A stretch of DNA of 64,000 bases from a virus (taxonomy: Duplodnaviria; Heunggongvirae; Uroviricota; Caudoviricetes): the IMG/VR virus record IMGVR_UViG_2029527006_000005. The stretch is one strand, 5' to 3'. Shown here piece by piece: positions 1 through 60,217 of the stretch (within the stretch, counting starts at the first letter, position 1; every line of letters starts with the position of its first letter). Both the position numbers and the translations under genes were made by a program. The notes under the pieces are model-generated. The model ran no database searches and was not told the origin of the DNA. It saw only the letters and a list, made by a program, of their open reading frames with translations.

Positions 1-464
1 GCACCGCGAAATTCTGGTTCACCTTCTTCCTTTACAACACCTGCTGCCATGCGACGAGCTTGTTGGTTGTGTGGGCGTTTGTCACGACGAGTAGTGTGAC
101 GGTTACCAGCAGTGGTCATTGGACGTGTCCAGTAAATGCGACCACGGCCCCAGCAATAGTACTTACTATAAGACACGTACTTTTTGTTGTACTCTGCTAG
201 AAGTAAATCAGGGGAAACCATTAAACCACTTTGTGTGTACAAATAGAAGCCTACGTGATTACATTCAATCGGACGAGAATACCACCAGCTTCTATAATGC
301 TGGTAGAACGCATCACTTGATTTAGTGTATGGTCCAACATTGAATTTCATGAAGCTATGGAAGCGTTGAATATCTCCACTCTGCCTAATGTGCGTGTACA
401 AATCATCTACAATTTCAGTTTTACCTGAGTCGTGGTAGATCACGAATGTTTGGTCAAAGAACAT
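1..464 (-). CDS. Phage hypothetical protein, 3' end outside the window (MFFDQTFVIY...RPHNQQARRMAAGVVKEEGEPEFRG)
   Basis: Translated by hand: ATG at 464 with GGAGAG upstream, open to the window edge; not in the ORF track. Confidence 0.8.
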   Translation of the reverse strand, partial: MFFDQTFVIYHDSGKTEIVDDLYTHIRQSGDIQRFHSFMKFNVGPYTKSSDAFYQHYRSWWYSRPIECNHVGFYLYTQSGLMVSPDLLLAEYNKKYVSYSKYYCWGRGRIYWTRPMTTAGNRHTTRRDKRPHNQQARRMAAGVVKEEGEPEFRG

Positions 465-538
465 ATATTCTCTCCTATTAAGTTAAAGTACCTTAATGGA
501 AAGACATGCGACCCTTGTGTTGTTTTTTCATATATCTC

Positions 539-673
539 CTACATGATTGCGTACAAACCGACGCATAGTGCTACTAAAATTAGTACTGTAATAACGATAG
601 CTGTACCTTTTCCCGGTTTGCCTAAAAACAATACCGCGAGTAATTCTAAAATCCCACCAATCAAATCATCCAC
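539..673 (-). CDS. Small 44-aa membrane protein
   Basis: GTG start abuts the upstream stop; two hydrophobic stretches (MDDLIGGILELLAVLFLGKPGKGTAIVITVLILVALCVGLYAIM). Confidence 0.6.
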   Translation of the reverse strand: MDDLIGGILELLAVLFLGKPGKGTAIVITVLILVALCVGLYAIM

Positions 674-1381: not shown

Positions 1382-1400
1382 AGTACTCTCCAAAAAGAAA

Positions 1401-1421
1401 AGGCCACTAAATTAGTGGCCT
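1401..1421 (-). terminator. Rho-independent terminator
   Basis: AGGCCACTAA-A-TTAGTGGCCT inverted repeat followed by a U-rich tract on the minus strand. Confidence 0.8.
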
Positions 1422-1495
1422 AAAAACAACATGGAGTCAAAATGTTATTATTGTTATAACATTATTTATCAATGTTGTTTTGAAACAGGCACTAA

Positions 1496-1744: not shown

Positions 1745-1777
1745 TATAATTTCCTCTTTTGTTTTGATAACATCTAT

Positions 1778-1806
1778 ATTATATCACATTGTTGAGCGTT
1801 TGTCCC
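1778..1806 (-). promoter_or_regulatory. Phage promoter GGGACA-N17-TATAAT with extended -10 (TGTGATATAAT)
   Basis: Same architecture at 13503, 47501 and 50187. Confidence 0.8.
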
Positions 1807-1814
1807 AACTTTTT

Positions 1815-2332: not shown

Positions 2333-3796
2333 TTATAGATTTTCTTCTGCAAATTCTGCTAGTGCAGAACGTACAACACCTTCTAGTTCAACGATACGGC
2401 AACCTTCCCAATCTTTGAACTTCTCAACTACATACGTTAGGCCACTGTTTACAGGGCTGATGAAGCGGGAGTCAATCTGGCTTAGGTTACCCATGATGAT
2501 TACTTTACAGTTTTCACCAGCACGTGTCAAGATGGTTTTTGCTTGTGCAGGGGTAATGTTTTGGAATTCATCAACGATTAGGATCGTGTTAATGAAGCTA
2601 CGACCACGAATAAAGTTCAATGCTTTGAACTGCATTACGTTGCGTTTAATGATTTCCTCAATGCTTCCTTGTGGGTTAGCATCATCTTTGTGGAGGAATT
2701 CTAGGGCATCAATAGCCGCTCCACAGAATGGAATAACTTTTTCCATTTCAGTACCGGGTAAGAATCCGATATCTTCAAATTGTGAATCTTGTGTTTTGGA
2801 GAAGATAATACGTTGATACGCATTCTTCTGTTCTAGCACTAGGTCTAACGCCGTTGCTAGGGTAATTAGGGTCTTACCAGTACCAGCAGAACCTAGAAGT
2901 ACTGTAATGTGTACATCAGGATCTAGAATACTGTTAATAGCCATCGCTTGTTGAACGTTTTTAGCTTTGATATCCCATACTTTAGCACGTAGAGATTTCT
3001 GCTGTCCAATGTCCAAGAATACCATGTATTCGGTATCGTCTTGTACTGAAGGATCAACATCCTCACGACGACCCCAACCTTCGAACACAAAGAGTACATC
3101 AGCATTATCTGCAATGTAATCACCGATGTATAGGTTAGTTGGTAGAAGAGGTTTAATTGCATCTTCTGGAATGTATTGGAATAGTTTACGTTGAGCTTGT
3201 GCACAATATACTTGTGTTTCAGACTCAGCTAGGGTAGCCCACAAATCAATATCAATGATATGATTTCCGGTGTGGATTAGATCACTGTCTTCGATTGTTA
3301 CGTCATGACGATAGTCTTGTACTTCTACGCCATAGGCTAGTGCCTTAATACGCATATTAATATCACGAGTTACAAGTACTGATTCAGTAGCTAGAGCAAC
3401 TAGGATAATCTTATCATCAGGTACAGTACTATTAATTAGTGTTTGTACTTTGTTAAAGTCTTTATCAGCAGCATCAACTTTAGTGCGTAGCAATGCTTCT
3501 GCTTCTTCAACGGTAGCAACGAATAGACGACTGTTCTTATCCATGTGTTTATGGATCTTAGAAACGTCCACTCCAGTACTAGAGATTTCTTCATGGGTCG
3601 CTGATTCAAGAATATCAGAAATGTTGCGAATTGCGACACGAGCATCACGACTTACGTCAACATTGCGGCTTTTGATGGAATCTAACTCTTCAAGTACTGT
3701 GAACGGTAAAATTACTGTTGAGCCAGCAAATGCTAGGATAGCAGATGGGTCACCAAGAATTACGTTTGTGTCTAGAGCATATTTTTTCATAAACAT
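2333..3796 (-). CDS. phoH: PIN-domain plus PhoH-family ATPase
   Basis: LDTNV, EELD, DDKII, TRDINMRIKA PIN motifs; Walker A GSAGTGKT; IGFLPG, RGRS, DEFQN. Confidence 0.92.
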   Translation of the reverse strand: MFMKKYALDTNVILGDPSAILAFAGSTVILPFTVLEELDSIKSRNVDVSRDARVAIRNISDILESATHEEISSTGVDVSKIHKHMDKNSRLFVATVEEAEALLRTKVDAADKDFNKVQTLINSTVPDDKIILVALATESVLVTRDINMRIKALAYGVEVQDYRHDVTIEDSDLIHTGNHIIDIDLWATLAESETQVYCAQAQRKLFQYIPEDAIKPLLPTNLYIGDYIADNADVLFVFEGWGRREDVDPSVQDDTEYMVFLDIGQQKSLRAKVWDIKAKNVQQAMAINSILDPDVHITVLLGSAGTGKTLITLATALDLVLEQKNAYQRIIFSKTQDSQFEDIGFLPGTEMEKVIPFCGAAIDALEFLHKDDANPQGSIEEIIKRNVMQFKALNFIRGRSFINTILIVDEFQNITPAQAKTILTRAGENCKVIIMGNLSQIDSRFISPVNSGLTYVVEKFKDWEGCRIVELEGVVRSALAEFAEENL

Positions 3797-11786: not shown

Positions 11787-12329
11787 TCAGATTATTAGTG
11801 AGTAAGGAATTTTATAGTCCACATTAAGATCAGCAAACATATTAGGATTTGGTGGAAATAATGCGTCCATTTTAAACTTCTGATTACTCTTTGCTATCTC
11901 TTCTATTGTATATTCCCCTTTTGATAGCTCATTGTCTATCTCATAGTAAGGAACTTCACCAATAACAGAAATATAGGTTGAGAACAATTCAGTACTGACA
12001 AGTAGTTTACTAGAAGAACAGGCAGCATACCTGTAAGCCCAAAACCCTTTTTCACCATCTTTGTACTCAAAATTTTTATCAACTACGTCTGAACTGAATG
12101 GGTTGTTTGTACTGCACCAATACCGGACAACCATAGTTGCATGTTGCCATTCATTTGCATTACGGATATGCCTAGCAGCCGCAAATATCAACGAATTTAT
12201 TTCACACAGTCTAACATGTTCTGGCAAAATGTCAAGAAATTTACAATTCGTCGTGTCATATTTGCTATGCAAGTGACCTTGCATAGCCATGATATCAGAA
12301 TATACGTCTTGTGTTAGACAATATAACAT
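11787..12329 (-). CDS. Hypothetical protein inside the NAD-salvage operon
   Basis: Start overlaps the NMNAT stop. Confidence 0.7.
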   Translation of the reverse strand: MLYCLTQDVYSDIMAMQGHLHSKYDTTNCKFLDILPEHVRLCEINSLIFAAARHIRNANEWQHATMVVRYWCSTNNPFSSDVVDKNFEYKDGEKGFWAYRYAACSSSKLLVSTELFSTYISVIGEVPYYEIDNELSKGEYTIEEIAKSNQKFKMDALFPPNPNMFADLNVDYKIPYSLII

Positions 12330-13447
12330 TATAGAATTCCGAGGAAAGTATCAATAATGCTTAGATGATCTTCAAAGAACATCTCACGATTGTTTGCAAT
12401 CTCAGAAAGTGGAACCCAGAATGCTTTCTCTGCATCATCACTACCTTTTACTTTAGGTAGTTTTGCACCAGCTAGCTTGATATAAGCACACTTGGTGATG
12501 ATACGCCAGCGTAGGGAACGTTCGAAGTCACCGAACTCTTCAACTTTCTCAATAGAACCTTTTAGTTCTTTATAACGAACATCAATCTTAGTTTCTTCTT
12601 TTAGTTCACGCAATGCTGTATCGACCTGTGTTTGGTCTTCCCATGCGTCAAAGAATCCACCGGGTAACGCCCATAATCCTTTACCGGGATAGGTGCGACG
12701 TTTTACTAGTAGGACGTGACCAGCACATACTACTAACGCATCACCCGTTAGGAATGGAATGTTAGTGTACGGTAGTTGCTCATTCATCTGTTTACGATAA
12801 CGTACAACAAAGTCGTGTTCATTTACTAGATTGTTTAGTACTTCAGGTTTATTCACGACGAACTTCTCAAGGAATTCTTGAGTTTCGGCGGGAAGACCAG
12901 AAGGTACTTGTTTAGTACTGAAGAACTGATTACGCAATGCAGTGCTGCTGAATGCTGGTGTAGGATTAACTTTAGAATCCTGTTCACGATATTCTGCTGG
13001 TACTGCTGGGTTAACAGTTAGTACTTCTTCGATAAAATCTTGTTTCCAGTGCGGGAAGAAGTCGAGATAGAAAGTACTTGCATCACCTTCTTTACGACAA
13101 CCAGTAAGTACAATGTCAGTACTGTTGCTAACTGAAGCAACTTGATTTTGAACTTCTTTTAGCCACTTGGTATTGTTGTAAGTGTAATCGTGCACTGGAA
13201 GAATATTAATCTTCACAGAACGACCTTTTGACCACTCTTCGGATGCAATACGTTGTGCCATCGCTTCTAGTACTGTTTTGCGTTCGTCAAAGGTGAACGG
13301 GTTTTTTGGGTCACGAGCTAGTTCGGAAGAACCAACTAGTAGGACAACGCGATCAGCTTTTTCGATTGCATTTTTAAGTACTTCTTCATGACCACGATGT
13401 GTCATTTGGAAACGACCGATATAAACATAAACTTTTTCTTTACTCAT
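12329..13447 (-). CDS. Bifunctional NMN adenylyltransferase / ADP-ribose Nudix hydrolase (NadM-Nudix, NatV-like)
   Basis: GRFQxxHxGH, KNPFT, SSTxLR; Nudix box ALPGGF...ALRELKEET; SDDAEKAFW, FEDH. Confidence 0.93.
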   Translation of the reverse strand: MSKEKVYVYIGRFQMTHRGHEEVLKNAIEKADRVVLLVGSSELARDPKNPFTFDERKTVLEAMAQRIASEEWSKGRSVKINILPVHDYTYNNTKWLKEVQNQVASVSNSTDIVLTGCRKEGDASTFYLDFFPHWKQDFIEEVLTVNPAVPAEYREQDSKVNPTPAFSSTALRNQFFSTKQVPSGLPAETQEFLEKFVVNKPEVLNNLVNEHDFVVRYRKQMNEQLPYTNIPFLTGDALVVCAGHVLLVKRRTYPGKGLWALPGGFFDAWEDQTQVDTALRELKEETKIDVRYKELKGSIEKVEEFGDFERSLRWRIITKCAYIKLAGAKLPKVKGSDDAEKAFWVPLSEIANNREMFFEDHLSIIDTFLGIL

Positions 13448-13502
13448 TCTAAGTACTCCTTAGTTATTTTTTAACACCGCCTACATCAGCGGCTACATTC
13501 TT

Positions 13503-13531: not shown

Positions 13532-13568
13532 TAAGTTTTTATGGGCGTTTATCCGTGATATGTCGTCT

Positions 13569-13596
13569 ATTATACGGTTTTTCTTGGGTATGTCAA
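13569..13596 (-). promoter_or_regulatory. Consensus sigma70 promoter TTGACA-N16-TATAAT
   Basis: Both hexamers are perfect; tandem with the promoter at 13503. Confidence 0.75.
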
Positions 13597-13606
13597 CGTT
13601 TTTTTT

Positions 13607-13614
13607 GGTAAATA
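13607..13614 (+). promoter_or_regulatory. Putative late promoter GGTAAATA
   Basis: Resembles T4 late TATAAATA; repeated at 14878 and 18205 upstream of virion genes. Confidence 0.6.
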
Positions 13615-13652
13615 ATGTAAAGTACTTTTATAATTTTACAGGAGATATTCAA

Positions 13653-14828
13653 ATGAAGCCTATTGCTAAATTTGGAGAGTTACCATTTTACGTGGATGGT
13701 ATCTGTGTTTTTGCTGCAACAGACGGGCAAGCACAAGCTATTACTGATGAACTCTTTATCATTGGTGAGCGTTCTACACGCATTTTTGATCTAGTTAACC
13801 ATGATACTAGTGAAATTTATAAATTTAAGCAAATGGTTAGTAGGGGGAAGGACTTAGTTGAGTTGCCATTATCAGCAACTGCAACCGAAGTTCAGCAAGC
13901 ACTTGGTAAAAATCAATTTGCGGTTAAAGTATATGATATTGTTAGTGGTGATGTTCTAGGATATGCTTACAAGTTTTTTACCCACAAATTTGTACTATCT
14001 AATGGCCTAGAAGTTCCTGTTGTTGATTTCAACAAACAAACAACACAACCAGTTCCAATTGTTCCAGTTACTGGTGTTATTGTTACCCCAAAAACAATCT
14101 CAGCACTATTACCAAACAGTGTTTCTGGAACACTTATTGTTGATGTTCAACCTAGTGATGCAACCAATAAAAATGTAACATACTCTAGTTCTGATGAAAC
14201 TATTGCAACTGTTACAAGTTCTGGCTTTGTTACCGCCTTGAAAAACGGTAATGTAGACATTACGGTAACTACAGTAGATGGTGGTTTTACTGCTGTTTGT
14301 GAGATTGATGTTAAAACTGAAGTCCAGTCTATTTCTATTACAAACGCAAGTACGCCATTCCAACCGGGTCAAACCCAGCAATTGAATGCTACAATTTTAC
14401 CAGTTGGAGCAGAATATAATGCCAGTGTTGATTGGATTTCTTCAAATGATGCAGTTGCAACAGTTTCAAGTACTGGTTTAGTAACTTACGTTTCTAACGG
14501 GGATGCAACAATTACGGTATCCGCTAGTAATGGTGCTGAACCTAAAACCGCAACTTACACTGCTTTAACAAGAACAAGACTACAAGGGATTGAATTCAAT
14601 CACACAACATTCACAGGCGTAGTTGGTGGAACTGATCGTTTGATCACCATTTATACACCATCTACAGCAAGCAATCAGAATATCACATGGGCAACCAGTG
14701 ATTCAAGTGTTGCAACTGTTAGTTTTGGTGTAGTTTCATTCACTGGCATGGGAACCGTTGAAGTTACTGCAACCTCCCAAGAAGGCAATTTTGTCGCTAC
14801 ATGTGTTTATACAGTTGTTAGTGCATAA
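13653..14828 (+). CDS. Virion decoration protein with bacterial Ig-like (Big_2) domains
   Basis: Start MKPIAK after AGGAG; three repeats like PSDATNKNVTYSSSDETIATV...G.VT. Confidence 0.85.
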   Translation: MKPIAKFGELPFYVDGICVFAATDGQAQAITDELFIIGERSTRIFDLVNHDTSEIYKFKQMVSRGKDLVELPLSATATEVQQALGKNQFAVKVYDIVSGDVLGYAYKFFTHKFVLSNGLEVPVVDFNKQTTQPVPIVPVTGVIVTPKTISALLPNSVSGTLIVDVQPSDATNKNVTYSSSDETIATVTSSGFVTALKNGNVDITVTTVDGGFTAVCEIDVKTEVQSISITNASTPFQPGQTQQLNATILPVGAEYNASVDWISSNDAVATVSSTGLVTYVSNGDATITVSASNGAEPKTATYTALTRTRLQGIEFNHTTFTGVVGGTDRLITIYTPSTASNQNITWATSDSSVATVSFGVVSFTGMGTVEVTATSQEGNFVATCVYTVVSA

Positions 14829-14842
14829 TTCTTTTTATATCC

Positions 14843-14867
14843 AAAGCACTGCTATGCAGTGCTTTTT
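14843..14867 (+). terminator. Rho-independent terminator
   Basis: AAAGCACTGC-TAT-GCAGTGCTTTTT. Confidence 0.8.
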
Positions 14868-14877
14868 AATTTAGGTG

Positions 14878-14912
14878 GGTAAATACACTATATAACTTAA
14901 TAAGGAGTTAAT
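14878..14912 (+). promoter_or_regulatory. Late promoter plus RBS leader, near-identical to 18205-18239
   Basis: GGTAAATA-nn-n-CTATATAACTTAATAAGGAGTTAAT repeated. Confidence 0.7.
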
Positions 14913-16241
14913 ATGGGAAAACCAATAGCAAAAGCTGGTAATTCTCCATTTACAACTGGTGGATATTGTGTAACAGCCGCCAAGATAAATGGTGTAACAT
15001 ATACTAACCTAAACATATACCAACAACGTTCTGACATGGTTTTTGACCTAATTGATACGTCTGGTAACATTTATACATTCATTTCATTGGTGTATAACAA
15101 TTCAGAGTCACAAACTCTAAATCCATCATTAAGTACTGAAGTACTTGTCAATTCAATTTCTGACAATTGTTTCTTTATTAAAGCAACAAATAGTCTAACC
15201 ACAAACACATCATTTGTGATTAGTTTTCAAAGTAATAAATTAAAACTAGCGAATGGTGAAATGCTTTATCGCCCGTTTGATTTATTCTACTGTAATATCC
15301 CAACCCCTGAACCTTTTATTCTTCCTGATATGTCTAGAAGCTATTTTTCAGGTGGTGATGTGGTTGTACCCGCAACTGGTGAAGATTTCGGTACAGCAGA
15401 TTTATTCCTAGTAGGTACTGACGGAAAAAACATCACAAACTATGATGTTAGTAAAATAAAAATGTCATTAGTGAATGATGACGGAACTTCATCATTATCT
15501 GAAGTTATTTCAAATGGAAATGGGGTTTATTATGCCAAAGTGTATTCTACGGTAATCCAACCTGTATATTTTGTTTGTTCAGTTAATGGTGAAACACCAA
15601 ATATGACACGAAATTTTGTTCAATTTATATCACCACAACGTGCAACCGTAAGGACGAATAGTGCTGTTAATTATGGTACTGCTAGCACCGTGGTTGTTAA
15701 TACTGAATTTATAATAAATGATCCAGCCAACCAATCAGTATGGGATAATTCAGCTACGTGGACGTCACCAACTCCGGGCGTAACAATATTAGGAAATACA
15801 TATGGATCAACTTGTTATTTGATAGCTAACACCACCGATGATGTGGTACTACACTATCAATCAAATTGGCAGAAATCTTTGAATGCAACTGGTACAGTTA
15901 AGGTTGAACCCAATTTCATTTTAACATCACCTGATGGTACAGTGGATACATTTAAAATTATACCTGACTCAACTTTCGATGTTAAGTTTTCATATAACCC
16001 AGTTGACCTCAGTACTTCTGAGCCGGGTAATATTGTAATTTTGACAACAGCTTTAAATGGTGTAATAGATTCAGTTGAATATCTCGGATCTATGACTTAT
16101 AGATTTAAATCCAAAAGTGCTGATGAATTTGATTCATTTTCAAACTCTGGTATTGGTGATTTGACTCTTTCCAACTTCACATCACGTGCAAAAATTAAAT
16201 TTAATATATCAGATAAATCTGGTAACTTCGAGGACAATTAA
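14913..16241 (+). CDS. Virion protein with MGKPIA N-terminal domain and invasin/Ig-like region
   Basis: N-terminus shared with neighbouring genes; beta-rich, GNGVYYAKV motif. Confidence 0.75.
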   Translation: MGKPIAKAGNSPFTTGGYCVTAAKINGVTYTNLNIYQQRSDMVFDLIDTSGNIYTFISLVYNNSESQTLNPSLSTEVLVNSISDNCFFIKATNSLTTNTSFVISFQSNKLKLANGEMLYRPFDLFYCNIPTPEPFILPDMSRSYFSGGDVVVPATGEDFGTADLFLVGTDGKNITNYDVSKIKMSLVNDDGTSSLSEVISNGNGVYYAKVYSTVIQPVYFVCSVNGETPNMTRNFVQFISPQRATVRTNSAVNYGTASTVVVNTEFIINDPANQSVWDNSATWTSPTPGVTILGNTYGSTCYLIANTTDDVVLHYQSNWQKSLNATGTVKVEPNFILTSPDGTVDTFKIIPDSTFDVKFSYNPVDLSTSEPGNIVILTTALNGVIDSVEYLGSMTYRFKSKSADEFDSFSNSGIGDLTLSNFTSRAKIKFNISDKSGNFEDN

Positions 16242-16242
16242 T

Positions 16243-18162
16243 ATGGGAAAACCAATAGCAGGCCAAGACCAATTCCCTTACAATACTAATGGGTTTTTAG
16301 TAGATGCGGCAAAAATTAATGGTGTAACATTTTCTAAATCACTGTACATATACAAACAACGTTCTGATACATACTATGATTTACAGGATACATCAGGTAC
16401 AATTTATCAGTTTGTTAAAATCGTTGGAACTGACCAAGATAAAAAACCACTTCAGTACTTTGATACATCCGAAGACATAGCTTTGAAATTGGAAAACAAC
16501 ACATTTTGTATGAAAATACAAGATCCAACTAGAGGTATATTTTCGTTTGTTAGACTTTACCAATGGCATAAATGTATAACATTCGATGGTGATTATATTT
16601 TCAGGAAAGGTGGATTAGATCCAACATTAAGTGGTGTTTATATAAATCCAGTGGTTGCGACAATATCTAAAGGTTCCACTCAATCATTCGTAGCTACTTT
16701 TTTCCCTGATGAATACTTGAACACTGATGGTAATTGGTATTTGAACATAAATGGTTCGGAAAAGACAATAAACACTTTAATTAAACAAACTGATAAAAAT
16801 AAAATTGTGGTTGAGGGAATAGATGTTGGTAAATCAATTTTATCATTTATACCATCTGGAAACAATTCTAAAATTTCAAGTTCAATAATCAATGTTATTG
16901 ATGCAGATACGCCAGTTCAAAGTTTTTTTGGTAGAGGAACAACAGACTTGCCATTTTCAACCACGCGTGCGTTATATGGTGAGGAATTTGATATTGTTAT
17001 TGAAACCTATCCATATGATGCAGTGTTGACTGAAGCACTCGATTTTGATATTAACATGAACGATGGATTAAGTATTGATGAAATAACTTTAGTGAAAGTA
17101 TCGGATGATTTTAGAACCTATACCTTTAAATCAAAATATATATATGATATCGATCCAGTTGGGATTTCATACAATCCTAGAATTACTTTTAAAATGAAAA
17201 ATCCAATTGATTTTGAATTTATGGTTTATTCAATTTATATATATAATGAAATGCGAGAAATTTATGTCAAGGAAAACGAAGAACTTGGCGTTAGGTATGA
17301 AGTTCTTTCAAATTTAAGACCAAATTCGCAATACCAAGCAATAAAACAATACATGTATTATGGTATACAATATAACCCATATATCTCATCTGACCCATCA
17401 ATTGCAACATTGGATCATGAGACTGGTTTAATAACGACATACGATAAAACTGGCGAAGTTTCATTCTCAACCACATATGTTAGAGATAATGGGGAAGTTG
17501 TTAATTATGATAATATATTAAGCTTTTCTGTAATACCGGATGTTTATGATTATATAACAATCGATCCACCAAATATCACATCAGTTCCTATTAATTCAAC
17601 AACCCAGTTTAAAATATACGGCGTGATTGGGGATATTAAAACTGAATTGAAAATTAAAGAAGTCAGTGATTCCAATTACAAAATAACATCGGATGGTATA
17701 TTAACTACTTATAACAAGGCTGGTGCTTATGCAACCGTTCAAGTTGATGATTTGTTTGAATTGTCATCTAATGTAATGACACCATATCAAACATTTGGAG
17801 CTTTCCCATTAATCGTTGAAGATGATAAATCAAAATATCAAATTACCGATCTATCATCATCTTGGGTATACCAAAATAATACTGTGTTTGTCAATCTAGA
17901 TGGATATACCGCAGGGTTAATTCCAAATTTCACAATAAACCCATACCCAGAAGTATGTGTGGATTATGAATTGGAAATAATTTCATATGATGAATCTATA
18001 ATTGAAATTTTAGATAAAGAACGAATCTCGGAAAATCAATGTTTTATGGCTGGTCAAATGATTGTTTACTTCAATCCCGTATCACGTGGAAGTACTTTAG
18101 TTGTTGTTGGAAGTGTTTCTAATCCAGACATTAAAATTGAAGTTAAAGTTGTAGTTTACTAA
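16243..18162 (+). CDS. Virion protein with MGKPIA N-terminal domain and degenerate Ig-like repeats
   Basis: Start MGKPIAG at 16243; SSDPSIAT Big_2 motif. Confidence 0.8.
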   Translation: MGKPIAGQDQFPYNTNGFLVDAAKINGVTFSKSLYIYKQRSDTYYDLQDTSGTIYQFVKIVGTDQDKKPLQYFDTSEDIALKLENNTFCMKIQDPTRGIFSFVRLYQWHKCITFDGDYIFRKGGLDPTLSGVYINPVVATISKGSTQSFVATFFPDEYLNTDGNWYLNINGSEKTINTLIKQTDKNKIVVEGIDVGKSILSFIPSGNNSKISSSIINVIDADTPVQSFFGRGTTDLPFSTTRALYGEEFDIVIETYPYDAVLTEALDFDINMNDGLSIDEITLVKVSDDFRTYTFKSKYIYDIDPVGISYNPRITFKMKNPIDFEFMVYSIYIYNEMREIYVKENEELGVRYEVLSNLRPNSQYQAIKQYMYYGIQYNPYISSDPSIATLDHETGLITTYDKTGEVSFSTTYVRDNGEVVNYDNILSFSVIPDVYDYITIDPPNITSVPINSTTQFKIYGVIGDIKTELKIKEVSDSNYKITSDGILTTYNKAGAYATVQVDDLFELSSNVMTPYQTFGAFPLIVEDDKSKYQITDLSSSWVYQNNTVFVNLDGYTAGLIPNFTINPYPEVCVDYELEIISYDESIIEILDKERISENQCFMAGQMIVYFNPVSRGSTLVVVGSVSNPDIKIEVKVVVY

Positions 18163-18168
18163 CAATAA

Positions 18169-18195
18169 AAAAGGAACCCATTGGGTTCCTTTTTT
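18169..18195 (+). terminator. Rho-independent terminator
   Basis: AAAAGGAACCCA-T-TGGGTTCCTTTTTT. Confidence 0.8.
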
Positions 18196-18239
18196 CATTT
18201 ATGTGGTAAATAATCTATATAACTTAATAAGGAGTTAAT

Positions 18240-20060
18240 ATGGGAAAACCAATAGCAGGAAAGGATCAATATCCTTTCCAAATCAATGGCATTATTGTAG
18301 ATGGTGCTAAAATAAATGGACAAACTTTTGTAAAAGGTCTATACATTTATAAACAACGTTCATATAACTATTATGATTTAATTGATTCTGATGGAAATGT
18401 ATATGAATTCATCGAAATTACTTGGAGAAAAGAAGATACCACCGTTCTTAATTACTTCGATAACTCAGATTATATTGTTGAAAGCATAAAAGATAATTCA
18501 TTTTTTATAAAGATTCAAGATATACCAAGAAACATTTATGGTTTTATTACATTAATACAATCAAACAAAGTTAAAGTTAGTACGGGTGATTATATTTTCT
18601 ATAATGACGAAGATGACTACGCTTTGTTGTCTGTTAGATGTATCCCAGCAACAATTCAAGCAAAGAAAAACCAGCTTGTTTCTATTGATGTTTCATTCCT
18701 TCCATTGGATTTTTCAAATCAAAATGGTAGATGGGATATGGAAACTTCAAATATAGCGGAAGTTGGTAGATCTAATACCAGTACTGGTATATTTAGATGT
18801 TTAGATGTTGGTCATGCACGAGTTACTTTTAACCCTGAAGCAAATACTAAACTAGCTGCAACTGCACAGATTTTCATTACTGAGAATGAACCAACATATA
18901 CTTCATTTAGATTTATGCAAAACGTTCCAAATGGAAAATCATTGTCAAATGATAATACATTTTTCCCTGGGGATGAAGTTACATTCACTGCGATTTTTGA
19001 ACCGTTTGGTTTTGTCCCAAGTCACGAATTTGATGTAATATATGATGAAACCGTTTTTGAATATCTTGGTTCGGATGATTTTATTAATTACAAATTTAAA
19101 GTACTAGATGATACTACCTTTAGTGGTGTAAGAACACGAGTAGAATTGCGTGATGGTAACATGTATGCATTTGATCAACCAATAATCAGGTTACCAACAA
19201 CATCAATATATACTGGCGTAGAAGGTCCATATTTTGTTCGTAGTGGCGAATCATATCAATATGATATGGCATATTATAGCAAGCCAGTAGATCCTTCTTT
19301 TACTTGGGGTGTACAAAATTCAAGCTTAGGGACTATTACATCTGATGGTGTGTATTCCCCGGTCGGAACTGGTGACAACCGTGTTTATCAAAACACAAAC
19401 GGTGGGATGAACTTGAACTACAAAAATGTAAAATGTTCTCCTTATGTACCAGATCGCTATGTATATTCACCAAGTGACCGTTCTGTATATTTTGTCGGAG
19501 AGGAAATCCAACTAACGGCAGCTACCATTCCTAGTTCAGTTTCATTGATAGGTGGAAAGTGGAGAAGTAGAAATAACAATGATTATGAATATTTCTCAGT
19601 AAGTACTTCAGGTGTATTGAAAATTTTAAAAGCACCAGACCAACCAACCAAACAATTTTATGTTGGATTTGCATACAATGGTTCAAGTAATGGTGGCGGT
19701 ACAGTTACGGATACAGTTGAAGCATTGGAAAAAACATTCATGATAATGGATGTAGATTCAAATGTTCCAATCCAGAGTATTAGAATTTATAATTACGCGG
19801 GGGTAGTTAACGTACCACTAGGTGGTAAAACCTCTACACAGGTAACAGTTTCACCAGTTAATAGTACTGGTAATAAAGGGTGGACTTATGAAATGTCAGT
19901 TGCTGGTATTGTATCAATTGAGTACATTCAAGAGTATAATAACAACTTCTACTTTACACCAGTTATAATTAATGGTTTATCTCGTGGTCAAACTGATATC
20001 ACATTCACGTGTGTGCAGAATCCTGAAATAAAAGTTATACAAACCATAACTGTTTATTAA
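18240..20060 (+). CDS. Virion protein with MGKPIA N-terminal domain and Ig-like repeats
   Basis: Paralog of 16243..18162, similar at both termini (NP.IK...V.VY). Confidence 0.8.
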   Translation: MGKPIAGKDQYPFQINGIIVDGAKINGQTFVKGLYIYKQRSYNYYDLIDSDGNVYEFIEITWRKEDTTVLNYFDNSDYIVESIKDNSFFIKIQDIPRNIYGFITLIQSNKVKVSTGDYIFYNDEDDYALLSVRCIPATIQAKKNQLVSIDVSFLPLDFSNQNGRWDMETSNIAEVGRSNTSTGIFRCLDVGHARVTFNPEANTKLAATAQIFITENEPTYTSFRFMQNVPNGKSLSNDNTFFPGDEVTFTAIFEPFGFVPSHEFDVIYDETVFEYLGSDDFINYKFKVLDDTTFSGVRTRVELRDGNMYAFDQPIIRLPTTSIYTGVEGPYFVRSGESYQYDMAYYSKPVDPSFTWGVQNSSLGTITSDGVYSPVGTGDNRVYQNTNGGMNLNYKNVKCSPYVPDRYVYSPSDRSVYFVGEEIQLTAATIPSSVSLIGGKWRSRNNNDYEYFSVSTSGVLKILKAPDQPTKQFYVGFAYNGSSNGGGTVTDTVEALEKTFMIMDVDSNVPIQSIRIYNYAGVVNVPLGGKTSTQVTVSPVNSTGNKGWTYEMSVAGIVSIEYIQEYNNNFYFTPVIINGLSRGQTDITFTCVQNPEIKVIQTITVY

Positions 20061-25040: not shown

Positions 25041-26483
25041 TTACTTTTTACCTTTTAAAGCCTTAGTAATAGTTTCGCTAAAGACTTTAACTGCACTGGA
25101 ACGAATTTCCACAATACGTTCATGTGTATCACAAGTATCTTTATCAAAACGGAATTCAACAAATACAGGTAGGAACACTTTAGGAATCTGAGTCTTCTTA
25201 TCTTTGGTTAACTCGTTGCACTCAACAGTAACAACTTTACCTAATAGCTCATCCTTCTTATCCCAAATACTTTGGAATGTCCACTCGTGTCCTTTCTCTT
25301 TAATACCAGTACCGCAGTTTGTGGTCAAAATACCATCTTCGGATTCTAGTACTAATGAACCTAGCATACCAGTACGTTTACCTTCTCCGGGAAGGAAACC
25401 AACAATACGTAGATCCATTTGCATCTTGAGTTTCATTTTTAATTGCTTAGGTGAGGTATGAGACTTCCAAATACCACCTTCACATTTAAGTACTGAACCT
25501 TCTTCACCACGTTCCATTAGCTCAGTATTATAAGCAAATGCATCTTCAATGCTTAGAACAGTTTCGTACTCAACCATACGAACAAACTCAGAGTCAACTT
25601 CATAGATTGCATTTTCTAGAATGTTACGACGCTCACGGCGGTTAACGTCCCAAATTCCTTCACAGAACGCATCGTAAGGCAATACATCCCATAAAACGAA
25701 CACAACCCGCATAGCTTCTGCCATCGTCATAGTGCCTTTCCCAGCCTTCTGGATGATGCCATTGCCAGTTTCACGAGGTTGGATATTACCTTGATCATCC
25801 ATCATCAAGCATTCACCGTTAAAGACTACCCCACTTTTAAAGCGTGGGTCATTACGGGAAATAGCGTCTGCTAGTTTTGCCATTTCTTCATCACGGCTTC
25901 CTAAGAAGTCATATAGTTTACCATTACGGGAAGTACAAGTCAAAGAAGAATTGATGACGGTATGGTTTAAGTACTGACCATCCATCTTCACTTCTGATAC
26001 TGCACAACCGTAAGTATCGAACTCAATATTACGAACAGTTTTGGTATCAATTAGAGAACAACGCATATATGGCTCATCTTTAATAAAGCCTTTACCAAAT
26101 ACATCGTTAGTAATTTTATCGCTTGCACCGCAACCTAAATCTTTTGTTAGTACACGTCGAAGTACTTCAGCATCATCATCTGATACAGAACCAAATAGAT
26201 TAGCAATGTAATCTCTGCCTGTGTGACCAGTTAGCTTACGAGAGTAGATTGCATCTAGTTTCTCTAGTGCCTCTCCCAATTCCATTCGTTCGCAATAGTT
26301 ATGCAAAGGTGCGGGTAGCTTCTTATATCCACTAACAATTCCGGGATCAAGTGCTAGTTTAAGTACACGCTTGAGTACTGGATTATCTTTATTCTCTTCT
26401 AGGATACGTTTCTTAGCAAGAATACTCGCGTCGTTTTTAATTTCTGTTAGAATTGATAGAATGTCTTTCATTTTATCCTCCAT
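25041..26483 (-). CDS. ATP-dependent DNA ligase, T4 gp30-like
   Basis: EVKMDG adenylation motif, SRNGK, FNGE, EGSVLK, OB-fold with FLPVF..FRFDK. Confidence 0.92.
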   Translation of the reverse strand: MEDKMKDILSILTEIKNDASILAKKRILEENKDNPVLKRVLKLALDPGIVSGYKKLPAPLHNYCERMELGEALEKLDAIYSRKLTGHTGRDYIANLFGSVSDDDAEVLRRVLTKDLGCGASDKITNDVFGKGFIKDEPYMRCSLIDTKTVRNIEFDTYGCAVSEVKMDGQYLNHTVINSSLTCTSRNGKLYDFLGSRDEEMAKLADAISRNDPRFKSGVVFNGECLMMDDQGNIQPRETGNGIIQKAGKGTMTMAEAMRVVFVLWDVLPYDAFCEGIWDVNRRERRNILENAIYEVDSEFVRMVEYETVLSIEDAFAYNTELMERGEEGSVLKCEGGIWKSHTSPKQLKMKLKMQMDLRIVGFLPGEGKRTGMLGSLVLESEDGILTTNCGTGIKEKGHEWTFQSIWDKKDELLGKVVTVECNELTKDKKTQIPKVFLPVFVEFRFDKDTCDTHERIVEIRSSAVKVFSETITKALKGKK

Positions 26484-26495
26484 GAATGGGAAGTA

Positions 26496-27695
26496 TTACT
26501 TCCCAATTTTTAGTTTACCGAACATTACTTTTTCTGGCATTGCCATAAAGACTAGCTTATAGTGCTGGTCGGAATAATTACTGAATCCAGCAAATGGTGT
26601 TTCGGCTCTCCAACCACTAAAGCGTTTGTGTAAATCTAAGTTTACTTCAGGCATTAGCAATTGTCCATTCTCTAGAATTTCTGCATCATATGCGAAGAGA
26701 TATTTAGCTGTGCGGAATTTTTCAGTTTGTGATTTATTACCACTAGTGTAATAACCAGTATTATCATCTGCTGCACCAAGTACTCTCATAATTTTACCAC
26801 GATACTCAGTATAAACAAAGAACGGGTTGATATCACGTGTTAGTACTTTAGGATCAATTTCTTCGTACTCAACAGTACAATCTTTTAGCTTGAATGGTTT
26901 ATCGTCACCAATAGCTACTAGATCATAAGAATCATTCATAATATCAAACTGACCTGCTGGCATGTGTTTGTTGAAATTCATATATTGAAGTTCAACTTGA
27001 TGAATTACATCTTTACGGTCAATAGGCTGATGGCCCACAACATTGATATTATAATACGAGTCTACAATCTTTGTACGAATGAAGTACTTACCAGTATTAG
27101 TATTAAGAACAACTTCTTTCTTAGAACTCTTCTCTGGAATGCATAGTTCTTTATTCTTATTCATAACTAGTACATGATACTTTCCACAGTACTGGTATAG
27201 ATCGTTTTTTGAGCTATCAGTACGGAATAGATCACCTTCTTTAATTTCAGAAAGGAGGTTCTTCTTCTCTTCGGCTTTCTCTTCTTTCTTGATTAGATCG
27301 GCAAAGAGTTTAGTCTTAGTACTTACTAGTTTGCGAGTCTCAGTGAAGAATAGTTCTTCTTGAATAGCACCTTCAATAATTGTACTTGTTTCAATCAAGT
27401 CCATGAAGTTATCAGACGTGATTTCAAACTCGAAACCTTCTGGGTGACGTACACGCCAAACAACGTTTGAAGTACTGTAACGAGATACGTTAGTAACCAT
27501 TTGGAAGCCAGTTTGTGGTGTATTCTCTACGTAGATTTTAGGTAGACGATTGTCGCCCCAACGATCAGCAGTTTCTTTCTTCTTCTGGAATGCTTTAGTA
27601 TGTTCTGCATCAGCAACAACCATAAAGCCTAAAATCTCTTCAGTACTGCGATAACAACGGGATACATAAAACTTCTTAGGAATACTCATTTCCAC
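26496..27695 (-). CDS. Phage hypothetical protein
   Basis: 399-aa ORF; N-terminal HPEGFEFEITSDN segment. Confidence 0.8.
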   Translation of the reverse strand: MEMSIPKKFYVSRCYRSTEEILGFMVVADAEHTKAFQKKKETADRWGDNRLPKIYVENTPQTGFQMVTNVSRYSTSNVVWRVRHPEGFEFEITSDNFMDLIETSTIIEGAIQEELFFTETRKLVSTKTKLFADLIKKEEKAEEKKNLLSEIKEGDLFRTDSSKNDLYQYCGKYHVLVMNKNKELCIPEKSSKKEVVLNTNTGKYFIRTKIVDSYYNINVVGHQPIDRKDVIHQVELQYMNFNKHMPAGQFDIMNDSYDLVAIGDDKPFKLKDCTVEYEEIDPKVLTRDINPFFVYTEYRGKIMRVLGAADDNTGYYTSGNKSQTEKFRTAKYLFAYDAEILENGQLLMPEVNLDLHKRFSGWRAETPFAGFSNYSDQHYKLVFMAMPEKVMFGKLKIGK

Positions 27696-32254: not shown

Positions 32255-32270
32255 ATTACCTCACTTAAAC

Positions 32271-32288
32271 GGGGAGAGTACTCTCCCC
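32271..32288 (-). terminator. Perfect palindrome / terminator centred on AGTACT
   Basis: GGGGAGAGTACTCTCCCC. Confidence 0.6.
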
Positions 32289-32294
32289 TGATAA

Positions 32295-45229: not shown

Positions 45230-45766
45230 TCATTTCCTCATATGCGATTGAACGCCACAGAACATATCATATTTTAAGTACTCATCATCTCCGGGTAAAC
45301 ATATCTTGAATGTACCGAAGTCATTGTTCAGTACTGACTGACGCATTAAGGTACTACTGTATATGCATCCAGTTCTGTCTGAACCTGCGAGTACTGTCTT
45401 GATGGAGTTAAAATTATAGTTCACTCCGTTATATTTGTCAAGTGTTTTTTGAAATGAATCAGTTCTATCACTTCCACCCACAAATACAATTTCTTCGTAC
45501 TCACCGTTTAGGCCATCCATGATATCAAACAAGTTTTTGACATTTTCATCTTGGATTGTGTTAGCAATTTCTGGGAAGAACTTTGAAATATAGAACTGAC
45601 GAAGTTCTCTTGGAAGTGGATTTCTTTCTGTATCTATTGTTGAACTCAAGAAGAGTTTAACATCGGTAGAAGCATTCTGCAAAGATAATGCTTGTTCGAA
45701 TACTTTACCGTGACCTAAGTGTACGGGATTCATTCTCCCGTACATAAACACACAAGTTTTAGACAT
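45230..45766 (-). CDS. Cytidylyltransferase-like (HxGH) nucleotidyltransferase
   Basis: GRMNPVHLGH, NPL, GGSDR, SSTLMR. Confidence 0.85.
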   Translation of the reverse strand: MSKTCVFMYGRMNPVHLGHGKVFEQALSLQNASTDVKLFLSSTIDTERNPLPRELRQFYISKFFPEIANTIQDENVKNLFDIMDGLNGEYEEIVFVGGSDRTDSFQKTLDKYNGVNYNFNSIKTVLAGSDRTGCIYSSTLMRQSVLNNDFGTFKICLPGDDEYLKYDMFCGVQSHMRK

Positions 45767-46286
45767 TTTTCATTACCAAACCTAAAGTTTTTAAGTACTG
45801 AACCTTTGCATCTGTTAAATTCCTATCAAGTACAATAATACAACTAGGGAAAGGTGCAGGGTTCTCCTTTTTAGTTACATCTCTATCAGGGTCAAAGAAC
45901 TTCAATCTTCCCTTAATAAAGCATATACAAGAACATTCTTTGGCTGCATAAAGTTGGAATGCTTTAGTATCAGTTCTAGAAGGAACTAGTATAACAACTG
46001 TGGCTCCCCTTTGATATGCATCAACTGCTTTGGTAAGCCATGTCTTAAGATCATCGTAAGGTGGGTTAAGCCAAACGATTTCAGTACCCCAATCCTGTAT
46101 TAGACTATTGTCTCCAGGAGTGTAGTACTTTTTACATAATGCACTATTGGGTAAACACGCTGCATCTAGTGTAAACTTCCAATGTGCATCTATGTCGCGA
46201 AATAACTCTCTTGGAGTATTCCATGTTTGAGATTCAGAAGAGTAATGTATACTCATATCTCTCTTTGCATTTCCTTTGCTACTCAT
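45759..46286 (-). CDS. Phage DNA N6-adenine methyltransferase (T1/HP1-type Dam family)
   Basis: WNTP, FTLDAAC, WLNPPY, LVPSRTD, GRLKF, APFPS. Confidence 0.9.
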   Translation of the reverse strand: MSSKGNAKRDMSIHYSSESQTWNTPRELFRDIDAHWKFTLDAACLPNSALCKKYYTPGDNSLIQDWGTEIVWLNPPYDDLKTWLTKAVDAYQRGATVVILVPSRTDTKAFQLYAAKECSCICFIKGRLKFFDPDRDVTKKENPAPFPSCIIVLDRNLTDAKVQYLKTLGLVMKNV

Positions 46287-46862: not shown

Positions 46863-47497
46863 GAATCATTTCACTTCGTTCTATGATTCAGAGAAAGAAT
46901 AATTCAAATACTCACTAGCGTTCGTATTTTAATATTCTTTTCATTGGATTGTACTTTAATTATTGACGAGGTTTGTTGATTCAATTTCATCCCCCCACAG
47001 GGAGGGAAGAAAAATATATTTGACGCTGGTGGTGTCATCATTTCATGTCACGAATTTCATATAAGAACGGAAGCGGGTTGCCCGGTTTCTTCCTATCGCG
47101 GTTCTATGCAACGGTCGTAGTCTTACTACACTAATACAATAACAACATGAACTGTTATTGTACTTATCACTCAAATTCTGGACGGAATAAGGGCTAGCCC
47201 TAAATTACGTCGCACTTGAATAAGGTGAATCCCTTATACATTATGGTAGGTGCGAATCCTATATGTCTATCGTGCCGTGAACACGCCAAGTCCTCTTGTA
47301 TTAATCGACTTGGTTTTAATAGCCGCATTGCCGTGGGTGGTACTAACTATGCCATCTCCTAACGGGTCTCATCTGCTATCGTACTGAATGAACTACTCAA
47401 CTGTCCTCTACATTTTCGAGTGAATCAGGTTATTTAAATTCCCCAGAACGGGGCCATTCAGAATTGAAAAGGGGTAAAGGACACACGCCTTTACCCC
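46863..47497 (-). ncRNA. Candidate large structured non-coding RNA (or R-loop origin transcript)
   Basis: About 630 bp with no credible ORF in a gene-dense genome, more than 10 hairpins, promoter at 47501-47529. Confidence 0.55.
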
Positions 47498-47500
47498 TAT

Positions 47501-47529
47501 ATTATATCACATTTTTGTCACTTTGTCTC
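47501..47529 (-). promoter_or_regulatory. Phage promoter GAGACA-N17-TATAAT
   Basis: Repeated motif; points into the non-coding region. Confidence 0.75.
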
Positions 47530-58000: not shown

Positions 58001-59624
58001 AATTCCAACTCTTCCATCTCATCACGTACAATCAAAGAACCACCAGCTTCTACTGGAAGCGACTCAAGCTCAATAGCTTCGTGTGCATTCTTTTCAGTGA
58101 AACGTAATGTAGTCTTTTTACCTGATAGTACTAAAGATTTACCAGTTAAGTAATTTTCAGGACTGTAGTAACCGTTATTTTCAGCTAGATGCGTTTTGAG
58201 AATAGTATTACCATTATGTGTCTCATTGTTCATAATCATAACAATGAACTCATTACTCCCACGTGTATAGAATAAACGCAAGGAATGTGTATCATTAACA
58301 TCACCCAAATCCCACATCATTCTGTGCTTGATTTCAGTACTGTCAGATTGATCTAAAAGTACAGTCGCTTGTTGAATGTACTTAATCATACGGTAGTGCT
58401 TTAACATGCTATTGTGATTCATTATAGTATCCTGTATCTTCTGAATAATGGCCTACTTGTAAAATAATTATACAGATAATCATTCTCCAAGTCAACCCCT
58501 CTGTGGAAATTATATACCACAAAATCGATGTTCTTCAGCCGCAATGCTTGAAAGTCAATGACGTTGTACATCATATCACGCATAAATTTGTTGTCCACTG
58601 TGAAGTCCACTGCTACTTTGCGTTCAGCCGCATCACACGTTTGATCATACGGAATATATTCTTCTAGTACATCTCCACTATCTAAGTAACCACTACGCAT
58701 AGTCAAGCACTGATCACTGAGTGAAGTTAATATAACACTATCAGTGTACATATAATAGTTCACGTGAGTATGGCTTGTTATTAACCCTTCGGATGCATAG
58801 AATGTTATCACGTCATTGTTTAGTGAAGCTACATTCTTCTTCTCAAGTACAAGTTTCTTTACTGACTTATTATTACCTAAATCTTCAGTATCAACCCTTA
58901 AAGCAAACTCACCCAAGTCAATAAGATCTTTGCGATGGATTAGTCTTTCCCATTCTATGTCAAGCATTGAACTGAACTTAATAAGCTCTCTATATATCGT
59001 GTCAAGTGTGTTCATAAGACCCCCATAAAAGAAAAGGCAGTGTATCACGATACACCGCCTGTGTCAACATCAACATGCCGCTTCTGCTTCAAAAATATCA
59101 ATCATAGCTTGAACCGCTTCAGTACTGAAGGATAACAAGCGAGTCGCATTTAGTGCAAAATAATAATCGTTATTCATTGTGTTATGATAACAGTACTCAA
59201 TGTATGAAGCAAATAGTTCTATTTCATTATCTACAACCATACGCTGGAATAGTTCATCATCAGTACCATTGACAATTATTTCAATTTCAGCACACTCTGG
59301 ATTGTTATCAAAATTGATAATCTTACGCTCTAAGCAAGTCTCTAAACTATGCATAGTTAGAAGTATATCACCTAGATTGGTTTTTTGTATATGCATAGTA
59401 CCTTCAGAACTTCTGTCCAAATAAGTATGACACGCAACTAAGAACCAATCATCTATTGTACTTTTAAGTACTGAACTATGATGTTCGCGATTAATAACAT
59501 CAGTCCCAACAAAAACAGTCATCTTTGCTAAATCAGTAATATTTCTGCACATGTGCCGTTTATTGTCATGTATATCCATGATGCAATCAATAAGTTTCTT
59601 TATTAGATCGAATTTGGCAAACAT
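55007..59624 (-). CDS. Eight tandem FQxS-family proteins (55007-55597, 55542-56246, 56207-56785, 56755-57267, 57260-57778, 57778-58422, 58422-59015, 59070-59624)
   Basis: ESELFMHS, EAEFQAL, EEEIFQLS, EEELFFLS, EGEIFQLS, EELEFQHS, DDELFQRM; 58422-59015 lacks a clear motif. Confidence 0.75.
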
Positions 59625-60217
59625 TTCTTTTTCATCTCCTGAAGTTCAGAATGAGCATCATAGATTTTCTGTACTGAATTAGCAAAACAAATATAAACCT
59701 TAGTGTGGTTTTCTTCACAGAGAGTATCTTTCAACATGAAGTTCAATACCATAGCATTGATTTCATCAGTACTATATACTAGACCCTTCTGGAATAATTC
59801 ACCCCGTAACTCTTCTTCATTATTAACATGTATTAGAGTAGGAAGATATACCTCATCACCTTGTATATCCCGCCAGAACCAATTACGATCATTCACTACT
59901 AAGATTTCACCACTACCTTCTCGAATGCACATACGCTTCTTGTCTGACTGATAGCGAGTACTGTATGGTCTGTTGTCATCCATAGGATCAGTATTAGCTG
60001 CTACAATAAATGAATTATAATAGTTCACATCTTCAGAATTCAACTGCAATGCAATACTATTTTGTATCTTCAGGATTTTGTACTTTGAACTCTCATATAG
60101 TACTGCATCCATCTGGGTTACATCATCTAATACCATGTAATCAGCTATGTCACGAATCAATAAACAAACTTCTTGTACTGCTAACCACTCCAAATAACTA
60201 CAATCTGCTAAATTCAT
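59603..60217 (-). CDS. FQxS-family protein
   Basis: Start MNLAD after GGAG; RGELFQKGL. Confidence 0.75.
   Translation of the reverse strand: MNLADCSYLEWLAVQEVCLLIRDIADYMVLDDVTQMDAVLYESSKYKILKIQNSIALQLNSEDVNYYNSFIVAANTDPMDDNRPYSTRYQSDKKRMCIREGSGEILVVNDRNWFWRDIQGDEVYLPTLIHVNNEEELRGELFQKGLVYSTDEINAMVLNFMLKDTLCEENHTKVYICFANSVQKIYDAHSELQEMKKKCLPNSI

Follow-up and report, generated by a model that had tools for sequence, protein, structure and literature searches.

Introduction

Bacteriophage T4 distinguishes its own DNA from that of its host through a modified base. The RaK2-like jumbo phages, distant relatives of T4 with genomes of about 350 kilobases (kb), contain ordinary bases. Short DNA words that are kept frequent by selection and read by proteins include the Chi octamer (GCTGGTGG), the uptake signal sequences (USS) and DNA uptake sequences (DUS), and the FtsK-orienting polar sequences (KOPS). 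In cyanobacteria, the short palindrome HIP1 (GCGATCGC) is over-represented many-fold throughout the genome, while in Escherichia coli the SlmA sites (GTGAGTACTCAC) of nucleoid occlusion form a palindrome scattered over the replicon. In this work, we describe the six-base palindrome AGTACT in a 64,000-nucleotide stretch of DNA (hereafter, the window) from a tailed phage of the class Caudoviricetes, deposited as IMG/VR record IMGVR_UViG_2029527006_000005. AGTACT is strongly over-represented in the window, is maintained there by natural selection at the DNA level, and is enriched in the entire phage clade to which its source belongs. As a tentative interpretation, we propose that a sequence-specific protein reads this selected word on duplex DNA, so that the word would tag phage DNA; it is also placed on early promoters.

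Judging by its similarity to this clade and by the matching gene order, the source is a giant enterobacterial phage that adds a new and rather distant member to the RaK2-like jumbo phages (group 2.2; RaK2/121Q/Munch). The abundance of AGTACT had been pointed out in a preliminary description, made by reading the window alone, which proposed a HIP1-like functional site that might be marked by a Dam-type methylase of the phage. Literature searches, covering AGTACT in phages, the promoter string AGTACTTGACA, and the CBB genome paper, found no description of such a word.

Over-representation of AGTACT in the window

In 100 dinucleotide-preserving shuffles of the window, AGTACT appears 20.9 ± 4.7 times (maximum 31), whereas the actual sequence contains 180 copies, about eight times the chance level and more than for any other hexamer. 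The strong over-representation reported in the preliminary description is therefore borne out, and most of the local details given there could be found again. These include each of the positions listed for an eight-copy cluster, the use of all frames (61, 36, and 64 sites in the three frames of minus-strand genes), the presence of sites between genes (six copies), and a hairpin centered on AGTACT (Table 1). The beginning of the array needed correction, as the first site lies at 158-163 and not at 159; the last one, at 60099-60104, had been placed correctly.

The GTAC core is itself frequent in the window (585 copies, against 212 expected at zero order or 402 under a Markov model), and AGTACT stands about threefold further above the level given by GTAC with independent flanks. 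The half-words GTACT and AGTAC are each enriched 4-5-fold, and all the NGTACT neighbor words are elevated (1.6-3.7-fold). By arithmetic on the window counts, the full palindrome exceeds the product of two independent half-flank enrichments about 1.7-fold, which fits a symmetric dimer. When the sites are symmetrized, the extended preference reads T-T-n-(C/A, not G)-AGTACT-(G/T, not C)-n-A-A.

Of the regions described as poor in sites, a block of immunoglobulin (Ig)-like genes does contain the number of copies claimed and carries Big_2 domains, with AGTACT still at about five times chance. Since this block is largely absent from the related phage Munch, it is probably a younger insertion, a lineage-specific expansion that is only partly loaded with AGTACT. 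Four large genes of the Ig-like type (Big_2, invasin-like) make up the block, all of them on the opposite strand, and at this place Munch has only a 675-base-pair (bp) gene. Another such region, a non-coding stretch near 47 kb, is indeed free of AGTACT, but the deficit is not significant alone, as about 1.9 copies would be expected there at the density of the window.

Several other six-base palindromes are nearly purged from the window, which makes the excess of AGTACT stand out more. AAGCTT and CTATAG are each seen twice where 21 copies are expected, CTTAAG four times (21 expected), and GACGTC and CCTAGG once each (7 expected). A 46-kb stretch of Munch contains neither AAGCTT nor CTATAG, and 121Q has eight and nine copies of them, respectively. 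This is a restriction-avoidance pattern, unlike that of 121Q.

Independence from coding and selection at the DNA level

When synonymous codons are shuffled within genes, 45.9 ± 5.7 copies of AGTACT remain, whereas 175 are observed. Codon and dicodon usage, named in the preliminary description as a possible source of the excess, thus does not explain it. The same is visible in the spelling of individual peptides. Ser-Thr is written AGT-ACT in 70 of 125 cases (56%), against 18 expected from codon usage; X-Val-Leu takes the form xxA-GTA-CTx 66 times (12 expected), and the spelling in the Tyr frame is used 39 times (6.7 expected). Moreover, the dipeptides are in excess, with 125 Ser-Thr against 76 expected and 151 Val-Leu against 107, while the reversed dipeptides Thr-Ser and Leu-Val occur at expectation. 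The pressure toward AGTACT bends the protein sequences themselves.

About 35 kb of the window can be aligned with Munch, at 77% identity and with the gene order unchanged. Within this alignment, 49.5% of the sites are intact in Munch, compared with 27% for all hexamers, and the corresponding values in 121Q are 45% and 16%. Where codons of the same types encode a conserved amino acid in the window and Munch, the same spelling is found in 104 of 132 cases within the sites and in 602 of 1015 outside them (odds ratio 2.5, P = 1e-5). AGTACT is therefore maintained by natural selection at the DNA level, and the earlier proposal of a HIP1-like palindrome acting at this level is upheld by the codon shuffle, conservation, and dipeptide spelling tests. 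Between relatives, about one site in two turns over, so selection acts on the density of sites rather than on each of them.

At window sites lost in Munch, the most common orthologous word is AATATT (four cases, and one more in 121Q), in which both halves have undergone the same transition. AGTATT and AATACT, the intermediates with a single change, were found once each; these small numbers hint that half-changed sites are short-lived.

A trait of the phage clade that is rare in hosts

Whole-genome counts were made for nine genomes of the clade, representing at least five genera, with the reversed word as a control. AGTACT occurs 850-1,313 times in these genomes, and the control word 134-200 times. 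The individual counts of AGTACT and of the control are 850 and 149 in Munch, 903 and 134 in 121Q, 1,313 and 200 in Hallingskeid, 1,235 and 187 in CBB, 1,008 and 137 in fHe-Yen9-04, 1,067 and 146 in pEa_SNUABM_47, 1,011 and 169 in GAP32, 937 and 142 in RaK2, and 1,312 and 159 in EJP2. In the outgroups, the T4-like RB33 and the KVP40-like R11Z, they are 22 and 50, and 73 and 116, respectively. The enrichment is a trait of the entire phage clade, and none of the nine genomes could serve as an AGTACT-poor sister phage for a comparison of gene presence and absence. The half-words are balanced genome-wide in Munch, with 1,411 copies of AGTAC and 1,355 of GTACT.

Genomes of the host order (n = 61) contain only 0.05-0.36 AGTACT per kb, mostly less than the control word. 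The density of 2.4-3.6 per kb in the phages is 10 to 50 times that of host DNA.

AGTACT on early promoters of related phages

The highest density of AGTACT in Munch, about 6 per kb, is found in the first 21 kb of its genome, a promoter-rich and partly non-coding region of small early genes. The spacers between these genes contain strong promoters of the host type, in which AGTACT takes two fixed positions. In the first, AGTAC-TTGACA, the final T of AGTACT is also the first T of the -35 box; in the second, AGTACT-(T/G)-TATAAT, the word lies immediately upstream of the -10 box. Paired sites start 20-23 bp apart, such pairs are in excess in Munch, and the same spacing recurs among the sites of Hallingskeid. 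The CBB genome paper describes only an 'UP-like element' before these promoters and does not mention AGTACT (PMC5259590).

The early region of Munch (1-21,000) also contains several copies of the Chi octamer, on one strand and inside or next to the early promoter spacers, where about 0.3 copies are expected in 21 kb. The spacers that bear Chi end at 3783, 18444, 20478, and 20944.

An unrelated group of lambda-like prophages

Viral contigs were scanned for three AGTACT sites lying close together. Beyond fragments of jumbo phages, the scan yielded two contigs with uniform enrichment and a guanine plus cytosine (GC) content of 37-38%: G001, of 31.8 kb (103 copies against 10.4 expected), and G002, of 29.5 kb (85 against 9.7). 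Of the two, G002 belongs to a lambda-like siphovirus whose proteins include a J-type tail fiber, a tape measure protein, a protease-capsid fusion, and a portal. A copy of it, 96% identical, is present in the enterobacterium Mangrovibacter plantisponsor (NZ_QGTS01000014.1, about 50,000-85,500), where it interrupts a HAD-hydrolase gene, into which it is integrated by a large serine recombinase. This prophage carries 90 AGTACT sites, and 44 kb of the flanking chromosome only five; the excess in the family is 9-10-fold. No placement of AGTACT at promoter boxes was seen in these lambda-like phages.

The Mangrovibacter prophage spans 35 kb of 31-42% GC in a chromosome of 50-54% GC, and its borders can be located with an accuracy of about 2 kb from the density of AGTACT alone. 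The remaining AGTACT-dense contigs of the scan were rejected, as they contain local clusters in repetitive genes and not genome-wide enrichment. Such tight clusters were found in the IMG/VR contigs L076/G067, L119/G003, L030/G005, L043, L068, and L078, which include giant-virus bins. Their sites are spaced by multiples of 3-6 or 132 bp within tandem protein repeats, and they are false positives for density screens.

The symmetrized flanks of the prophage sites show the same preferences as those of the window and Munch. At position -1, C is raised 1.6-1.9-fold, while G (0.4-0.6-fold) and T (0.65-0.8-fold) are reduced, and T at -3/-4 is raised 1.2-1.5-fold. All open reading frames (ORFs) of G001, G002, and the Mangrovibacter prophage were compared with Munch and the window by tblastn and phmmer in search of a common reader gene, and none was found. 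The sole matches in common were a lysozyme of the T4 type (43-47% identity), an HNH endonuclease, and some marginal hits to very short ORFs. The occurrence of the same fine flank preferences without a shared gene points to one recognition surface rather than chance. With no candidate gene in common, either the two groups use a phage-encoded reader that has diverged beyond the reach of sequence searches, or the reader is host-encoded. The comparison thus argues for a shared recognition surface that may be host-encoded, diverged past sequence detection, or copied between the phage groups.

The AGTACT-free zone at the end of the window

No AGTACT is present past 60099, even though GTAC reaches its highest density in the window there (14 per kb). 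The plus strand of the 60.1-64 kb region has 35 copies of GTACT and none of AGTAC, giving a run of 53 GTAC loci without AGTAC, whereas the maximum under the null is 17. This pattern belongs to a wider rule. From 60347 to 64000, the sense strand contains a single ACT where about 79 are expected and six TCT where about 49 are expected. The deficit extends to all three frames; GCT and CCT occur at normal frequency, and ACA and ACG are elevated. The ban on ACT and TCT (WCT) begins exactly at a gene boundary, and the 350 kb of Munch contain a single comparable stretch, located in the orthologous genes (no ACT at 25,612-27,567). Within the zone, AGTAC is kept at 7-15-fold, in the form of AGTACA (19 copies), AGTACC (7), and AGTACG (6).

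The absence of AGTACT after 60.1 kb is secondary to this separate, conserved, single-locus ban on one strand. Because the ban covers both ACT and TCT, the zone shows only that AGTAC persists where the palindrome is impossible. We rejected it as proof of a pentamer read in one orientation, since the real pattern is a one-strand ban of ACT and TCT. The ban may have arisen as an escape from either a WCU-cutting RNase or an enzyme that acts on DNA in a strand-specific manner. The genes of the zone are ORFans of a diverged paralog array, and PHROG and Pfam searches gave no match for them.

Source phage and features of the window

The window has 36% GC, and nearly all of its approximately 100 genes lie on the minus strand. 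Its nearest named phages are the Salmonella phages 7t3 and Munch and the Klebsiella phage fENko-Kae01, at only 74-75% DNA identity (for 7t3/Munch, 74.6% across 75% of 7 kb), followed by the 121Q/PBECO4 group at about 70%. The window is syntenic with 34-81 kb of Munch and 188-233 kb of 121Q. The genes of this region encode a Sir2-like protein, NAPRT, NMN adenylyltransferase, dCMP deaminase, ClpP, DNA ligase, phosphatases, polynucleotide kinase, RNA ligase, and Dam methylase. Rfam and transfer RNA (tRNA) scans of the window gave no match, and gaps equivalent to its gene-free stretch are present in Munch and 121Q.

Table 1. Features of the window discussed in the text.
Feature	Coordinates	Strand	Description
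AGTACT array, 180 sites	158..60104		mean spacing 335 bp
Eight-site AGTACT cluster	12837..13457		mostly within an NMN-adenylyltransferase/NUDIX gene (12329-13447, minus strand; PF01467 and PF00293)
Ig-like (Big_2) gene block	13560..20060	+	GC 0.32; 11 sites, 1.7 per kb; mostly missing from Munch
Perfect 18-bp palindrome GGGGAG-AGTACT-CTCCCC	32271..32288		AGTACT central; in intergenic spacer 32255-32294
Phage Dam-type N6-adenine methyltransferase, 175 residues	45759..46286	-	PF05869 match over residues 17-160, 106 bits (cut-off 28.1)
Gene-free stretch (about 670 bp)	46863..47529	-	no AGTACT, Rfam family, or tRNA
Zone with sense-strand ACT/TCT ban	60347..64000	-	AGTACT impossible; orthologous, unique stretch in Munch

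Proposed role of AGTACT and alternative explanations

We infer that a protein reads AGTACT, that it does so on duplex DNA, and what its binding achieves. In this tentative model, which fits the data best, AGTACT would be a recognition word present at about one copy per 300 bp across RaK2-like genomes, in its fuller form TTn[C/A]AGTACT[G/T]nAA. It would serve as a docking site for a sequence-specific protein, probably a dimer, on unmodified duplex DNA. Binding would tag phage DNA, since the word is 10-50 times denser there than in the host, and the reader, which may be phage- or host-encoded, would also occupy early promoters, most simply for their shut-off.

Several observations weigh against this model. 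The searches of prophage ORFs against Munch and the window found no reader, and beyond the T4-type lysozyme and the HNH endonuclease, no protein was detected in both of the enriched phage groups. At 77% DNA identity, turnover affects about half of the sites, so none of them is essential individually. Pairs at promoters were observed in relatives and not in the window, which has only the six intergenic sites. The spacing of sites is only weakly more regular than random in the window (coefficient of variation 0.84, P = 0.01; 0.95 and not significant in Munch), while intragenic sites show no helical phasing. Finally, the persistence of the half-word AGTAC on one strand would also fit a reader acting strand-wise.

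It is also conceivable, although unlikely, that a host-encoded factor, either an enterobacterial DNA-binding protein or SlmA, is recruited or titrated by the phage sites, for example to block cell division. Such a factor would suit two unrelated groups of Enterobacteriaceae phages that have a common word and common flanks and no common reader gene. Furthermore, the center of the SlmA site is exactly AGTACT (PMC3020112). However, SlmA strongly needs G1, T2, A4, and G5 plus a purine at position 3 (PMC3020112), and the phage flanks do not match this requirement: they are depleted of G at position 3 (0.4-0.6-fold), where C is preferred, and are T-rich where SlmA needs G. Half flanks of the GTR-AGTACT type are slightly under expectation (7 against 10.4, 35 against 48.7, and 8 against 11), and the window has no GT.AG..CT.AC site. 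SlmA was therefore rejected as the reader, the flanks being wrong and the window containing no SlmA-binding sites. A general host pressure is unlikely as well, because the T4-like RB33, also an enteric phage, shows no enrichment of AGTACT.

A bolder version of the model, to which we give little credence, holds that AGTACT is a viral self-identity tag by which a phage protein distinguishes unmodified phage DNA from host DNA, and that the lambda-like prophages copied this tag, flanks included. The tag could then be used to spare phage DNA from the destruction of host DNA, to confine transcription shut-off to the host, and to silence the phage's own early promoters, and the prophage family would have copied it to survive or exploit jumbo-phage infection.

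Similarly improbable is strand-wise reading by the replication machinery, with AGTACT as the start site of a T4-type primase, in which a cryptic 3' T plus a five-base template would give pppGUACU and the palindrome would serve forks moving either way. Primases read short single-strand words in all frames, and T4 primers are pentanucleotides (T4 gp61, T7 gp4), which is in favor of this explanation, as are the 4-5-fold enrichment of the half-words themselves and the WCT-free zone, where GTACT is dense on one strand and wholly missing from the other. That zone, however, bans TCT too, so its rule differs from the AGTACT rule. In addition, the lambda-like prophages lack homologs of all replication proteins of the jumbo phage, its primase included, the promoter placement is left unexplained, and a five-base word would already occur about every 1 kb per strand, which makes the gain from enrichment unclear.

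We consider it still less probable that AGTACT is a functionless by-product of biased mutation, repair, or gene conversion. The turnover of about half of the sites between relatives would agree with this explanation, as would the elevation of all NGTACT neighbors and the lower density in younger or mobile DNA such as the Ig block, as if AGTACT accumulated over time. Nevertheless, the transition neighbors AGTATT/AATACT are not depleted, with observed-to-expected ratios of 1.10 in the window and 1.16 in Munch (1.4-1.8 for AGCACT/AGTGCT). The synonymous positions of existing sites are conserved, and promoter sites occupy fixed positions. Hosts are poor in AGTACT, so host repair is not the driver, and the two enriched phage groups have no driver enzyme in common; a polymerase- or repair-driven origin is thus disfavored.

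Marking by a phage methyltransferase, whether that at 45759-46286 or another, with HIP1-like amplification through a methylase-linked mismatch-repair drive, is very improbable. Its appeal comes from GTAC-specific adenine and cytosine methylases known elsewhere (M.CviQI, M.ScaI) and from cyanobacteria, where HIP1 variants co-occur with matching methylases. Phages of this group encode several methyltransferases (window search; PMC5259590). However, the enzyme singled out in the preliminary description belongs to the Dam family PF05869, and according to the family description, its known members are GATC enzymes. For two phages of the group, Dougherty and colleagues set native DNA against amplified DNA by nanopore sequencing (PMC11780129). 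In Erwinia phage Hallingskeid, they found only GATC and CCWGG, and in Kaldavass, of the related genus Mimasvirus, only TGCAT was added (PMC11780129, Table 3). As we counted 1,313 sites in Hallingskeid, a modification of AGTACT would have had ample instances to appear. The footprint of a mismatch-repair drive of the very-short-patch type, namely depletion of the deamination-type neighbors AGTATT/AATACT, is absent in both the window and Munch, so a HIP1-type methylase and repair drive is not supported. The proposed link to the methylase therefore finds no support, and this Dam-type enzyme is very unlikely to be the reader of AGTACT.

A pure effect of amino-acid, codon, and dicodon usage can be dismissed, for although synonymous shuffling yields 46 sites, twice the zero-order expectation, 175 are observed, in all three frames and without over-use of the reversed dipeptides, and the density in Munch peaks in its promoter-rich, partly non-coding early region.

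With about 1,000 copies per genome, an influence on protein sequences, rarity in the host, and a place on early promoters, AGTACT is a testable candidate for a self-mark that, if true, would be based on sequence instead of chemistry. If its reader were identified, a further level of gene control or DNA protection in jumbo phages would come to light, and the presence of AGTACT in an unrelated prophage family would be explained. In practice, AGTACT density offers a simple signature for detecting such phages and prophages in sequence data.

Comparison with known systems

Like Chi, USS/DUS, and KOPS, AGTACT is a short word kept frequent by selection, and in the proposed model, it would likewise be read by a protein and mark one kind of DNA. 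Those words, however, are asymmetric and strand-biased and serve a known machine, whereas AGTACT is palindromic, is not a word of the host, and has no known reader. It is also far denser than Chi (one copy per 300 bp). A polar word of the Chi or KOPS type is not apparent, as the half-words are balanced and the sole polar stretch is explained by the WCT ban.

SlmA sites have an identical central six bases and form a palindrome scattered over the replicon; in the SlmA system, the reader is a TetR-type dimer from the same family of hosts. They differ in that their flanks (G1, T2, purine 3) are absent or counter-selected in the phages, and in number, with tens per chromosome as opposed to about 1,000 per 350 kb.

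Operators of classical phage repressors resemble the layout in the early region of the relatives, where two copies of a palindrome flank the -35/-10 hexamers about two helical turns apart. Such promoter-overlapping pairs are present in the Munch early region, that is, in relatives only. In contrast to these operators, more than 90% of AGTACT copies are intragenic and far from promoters, and no repressor is known.

The closest parallel is HIP1, which is similarly over-represented many-fold genome-wide, in all frames and between genes, and is conserved beyond its surroundings. The HIP1 type of over-representation is seen here in the 180 copies against 21 expected, in three frames and intergenic DNA, and in nine relatives; a cognate methyltransferase is not indicated by the published methylome of the relative Hallingskeid. 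HIP1 resides in cellular chromosomes and is tied to matching methyltransferases, whereas AGTACT marks the DNA of viruses, is rare in their hosts, shows no detected modification in a relative and no footprint of a repair drive, and is built into promoters. Even with a modest function, it ranks among the strongest cases of an iterated palindrome outside cyanobacteria.

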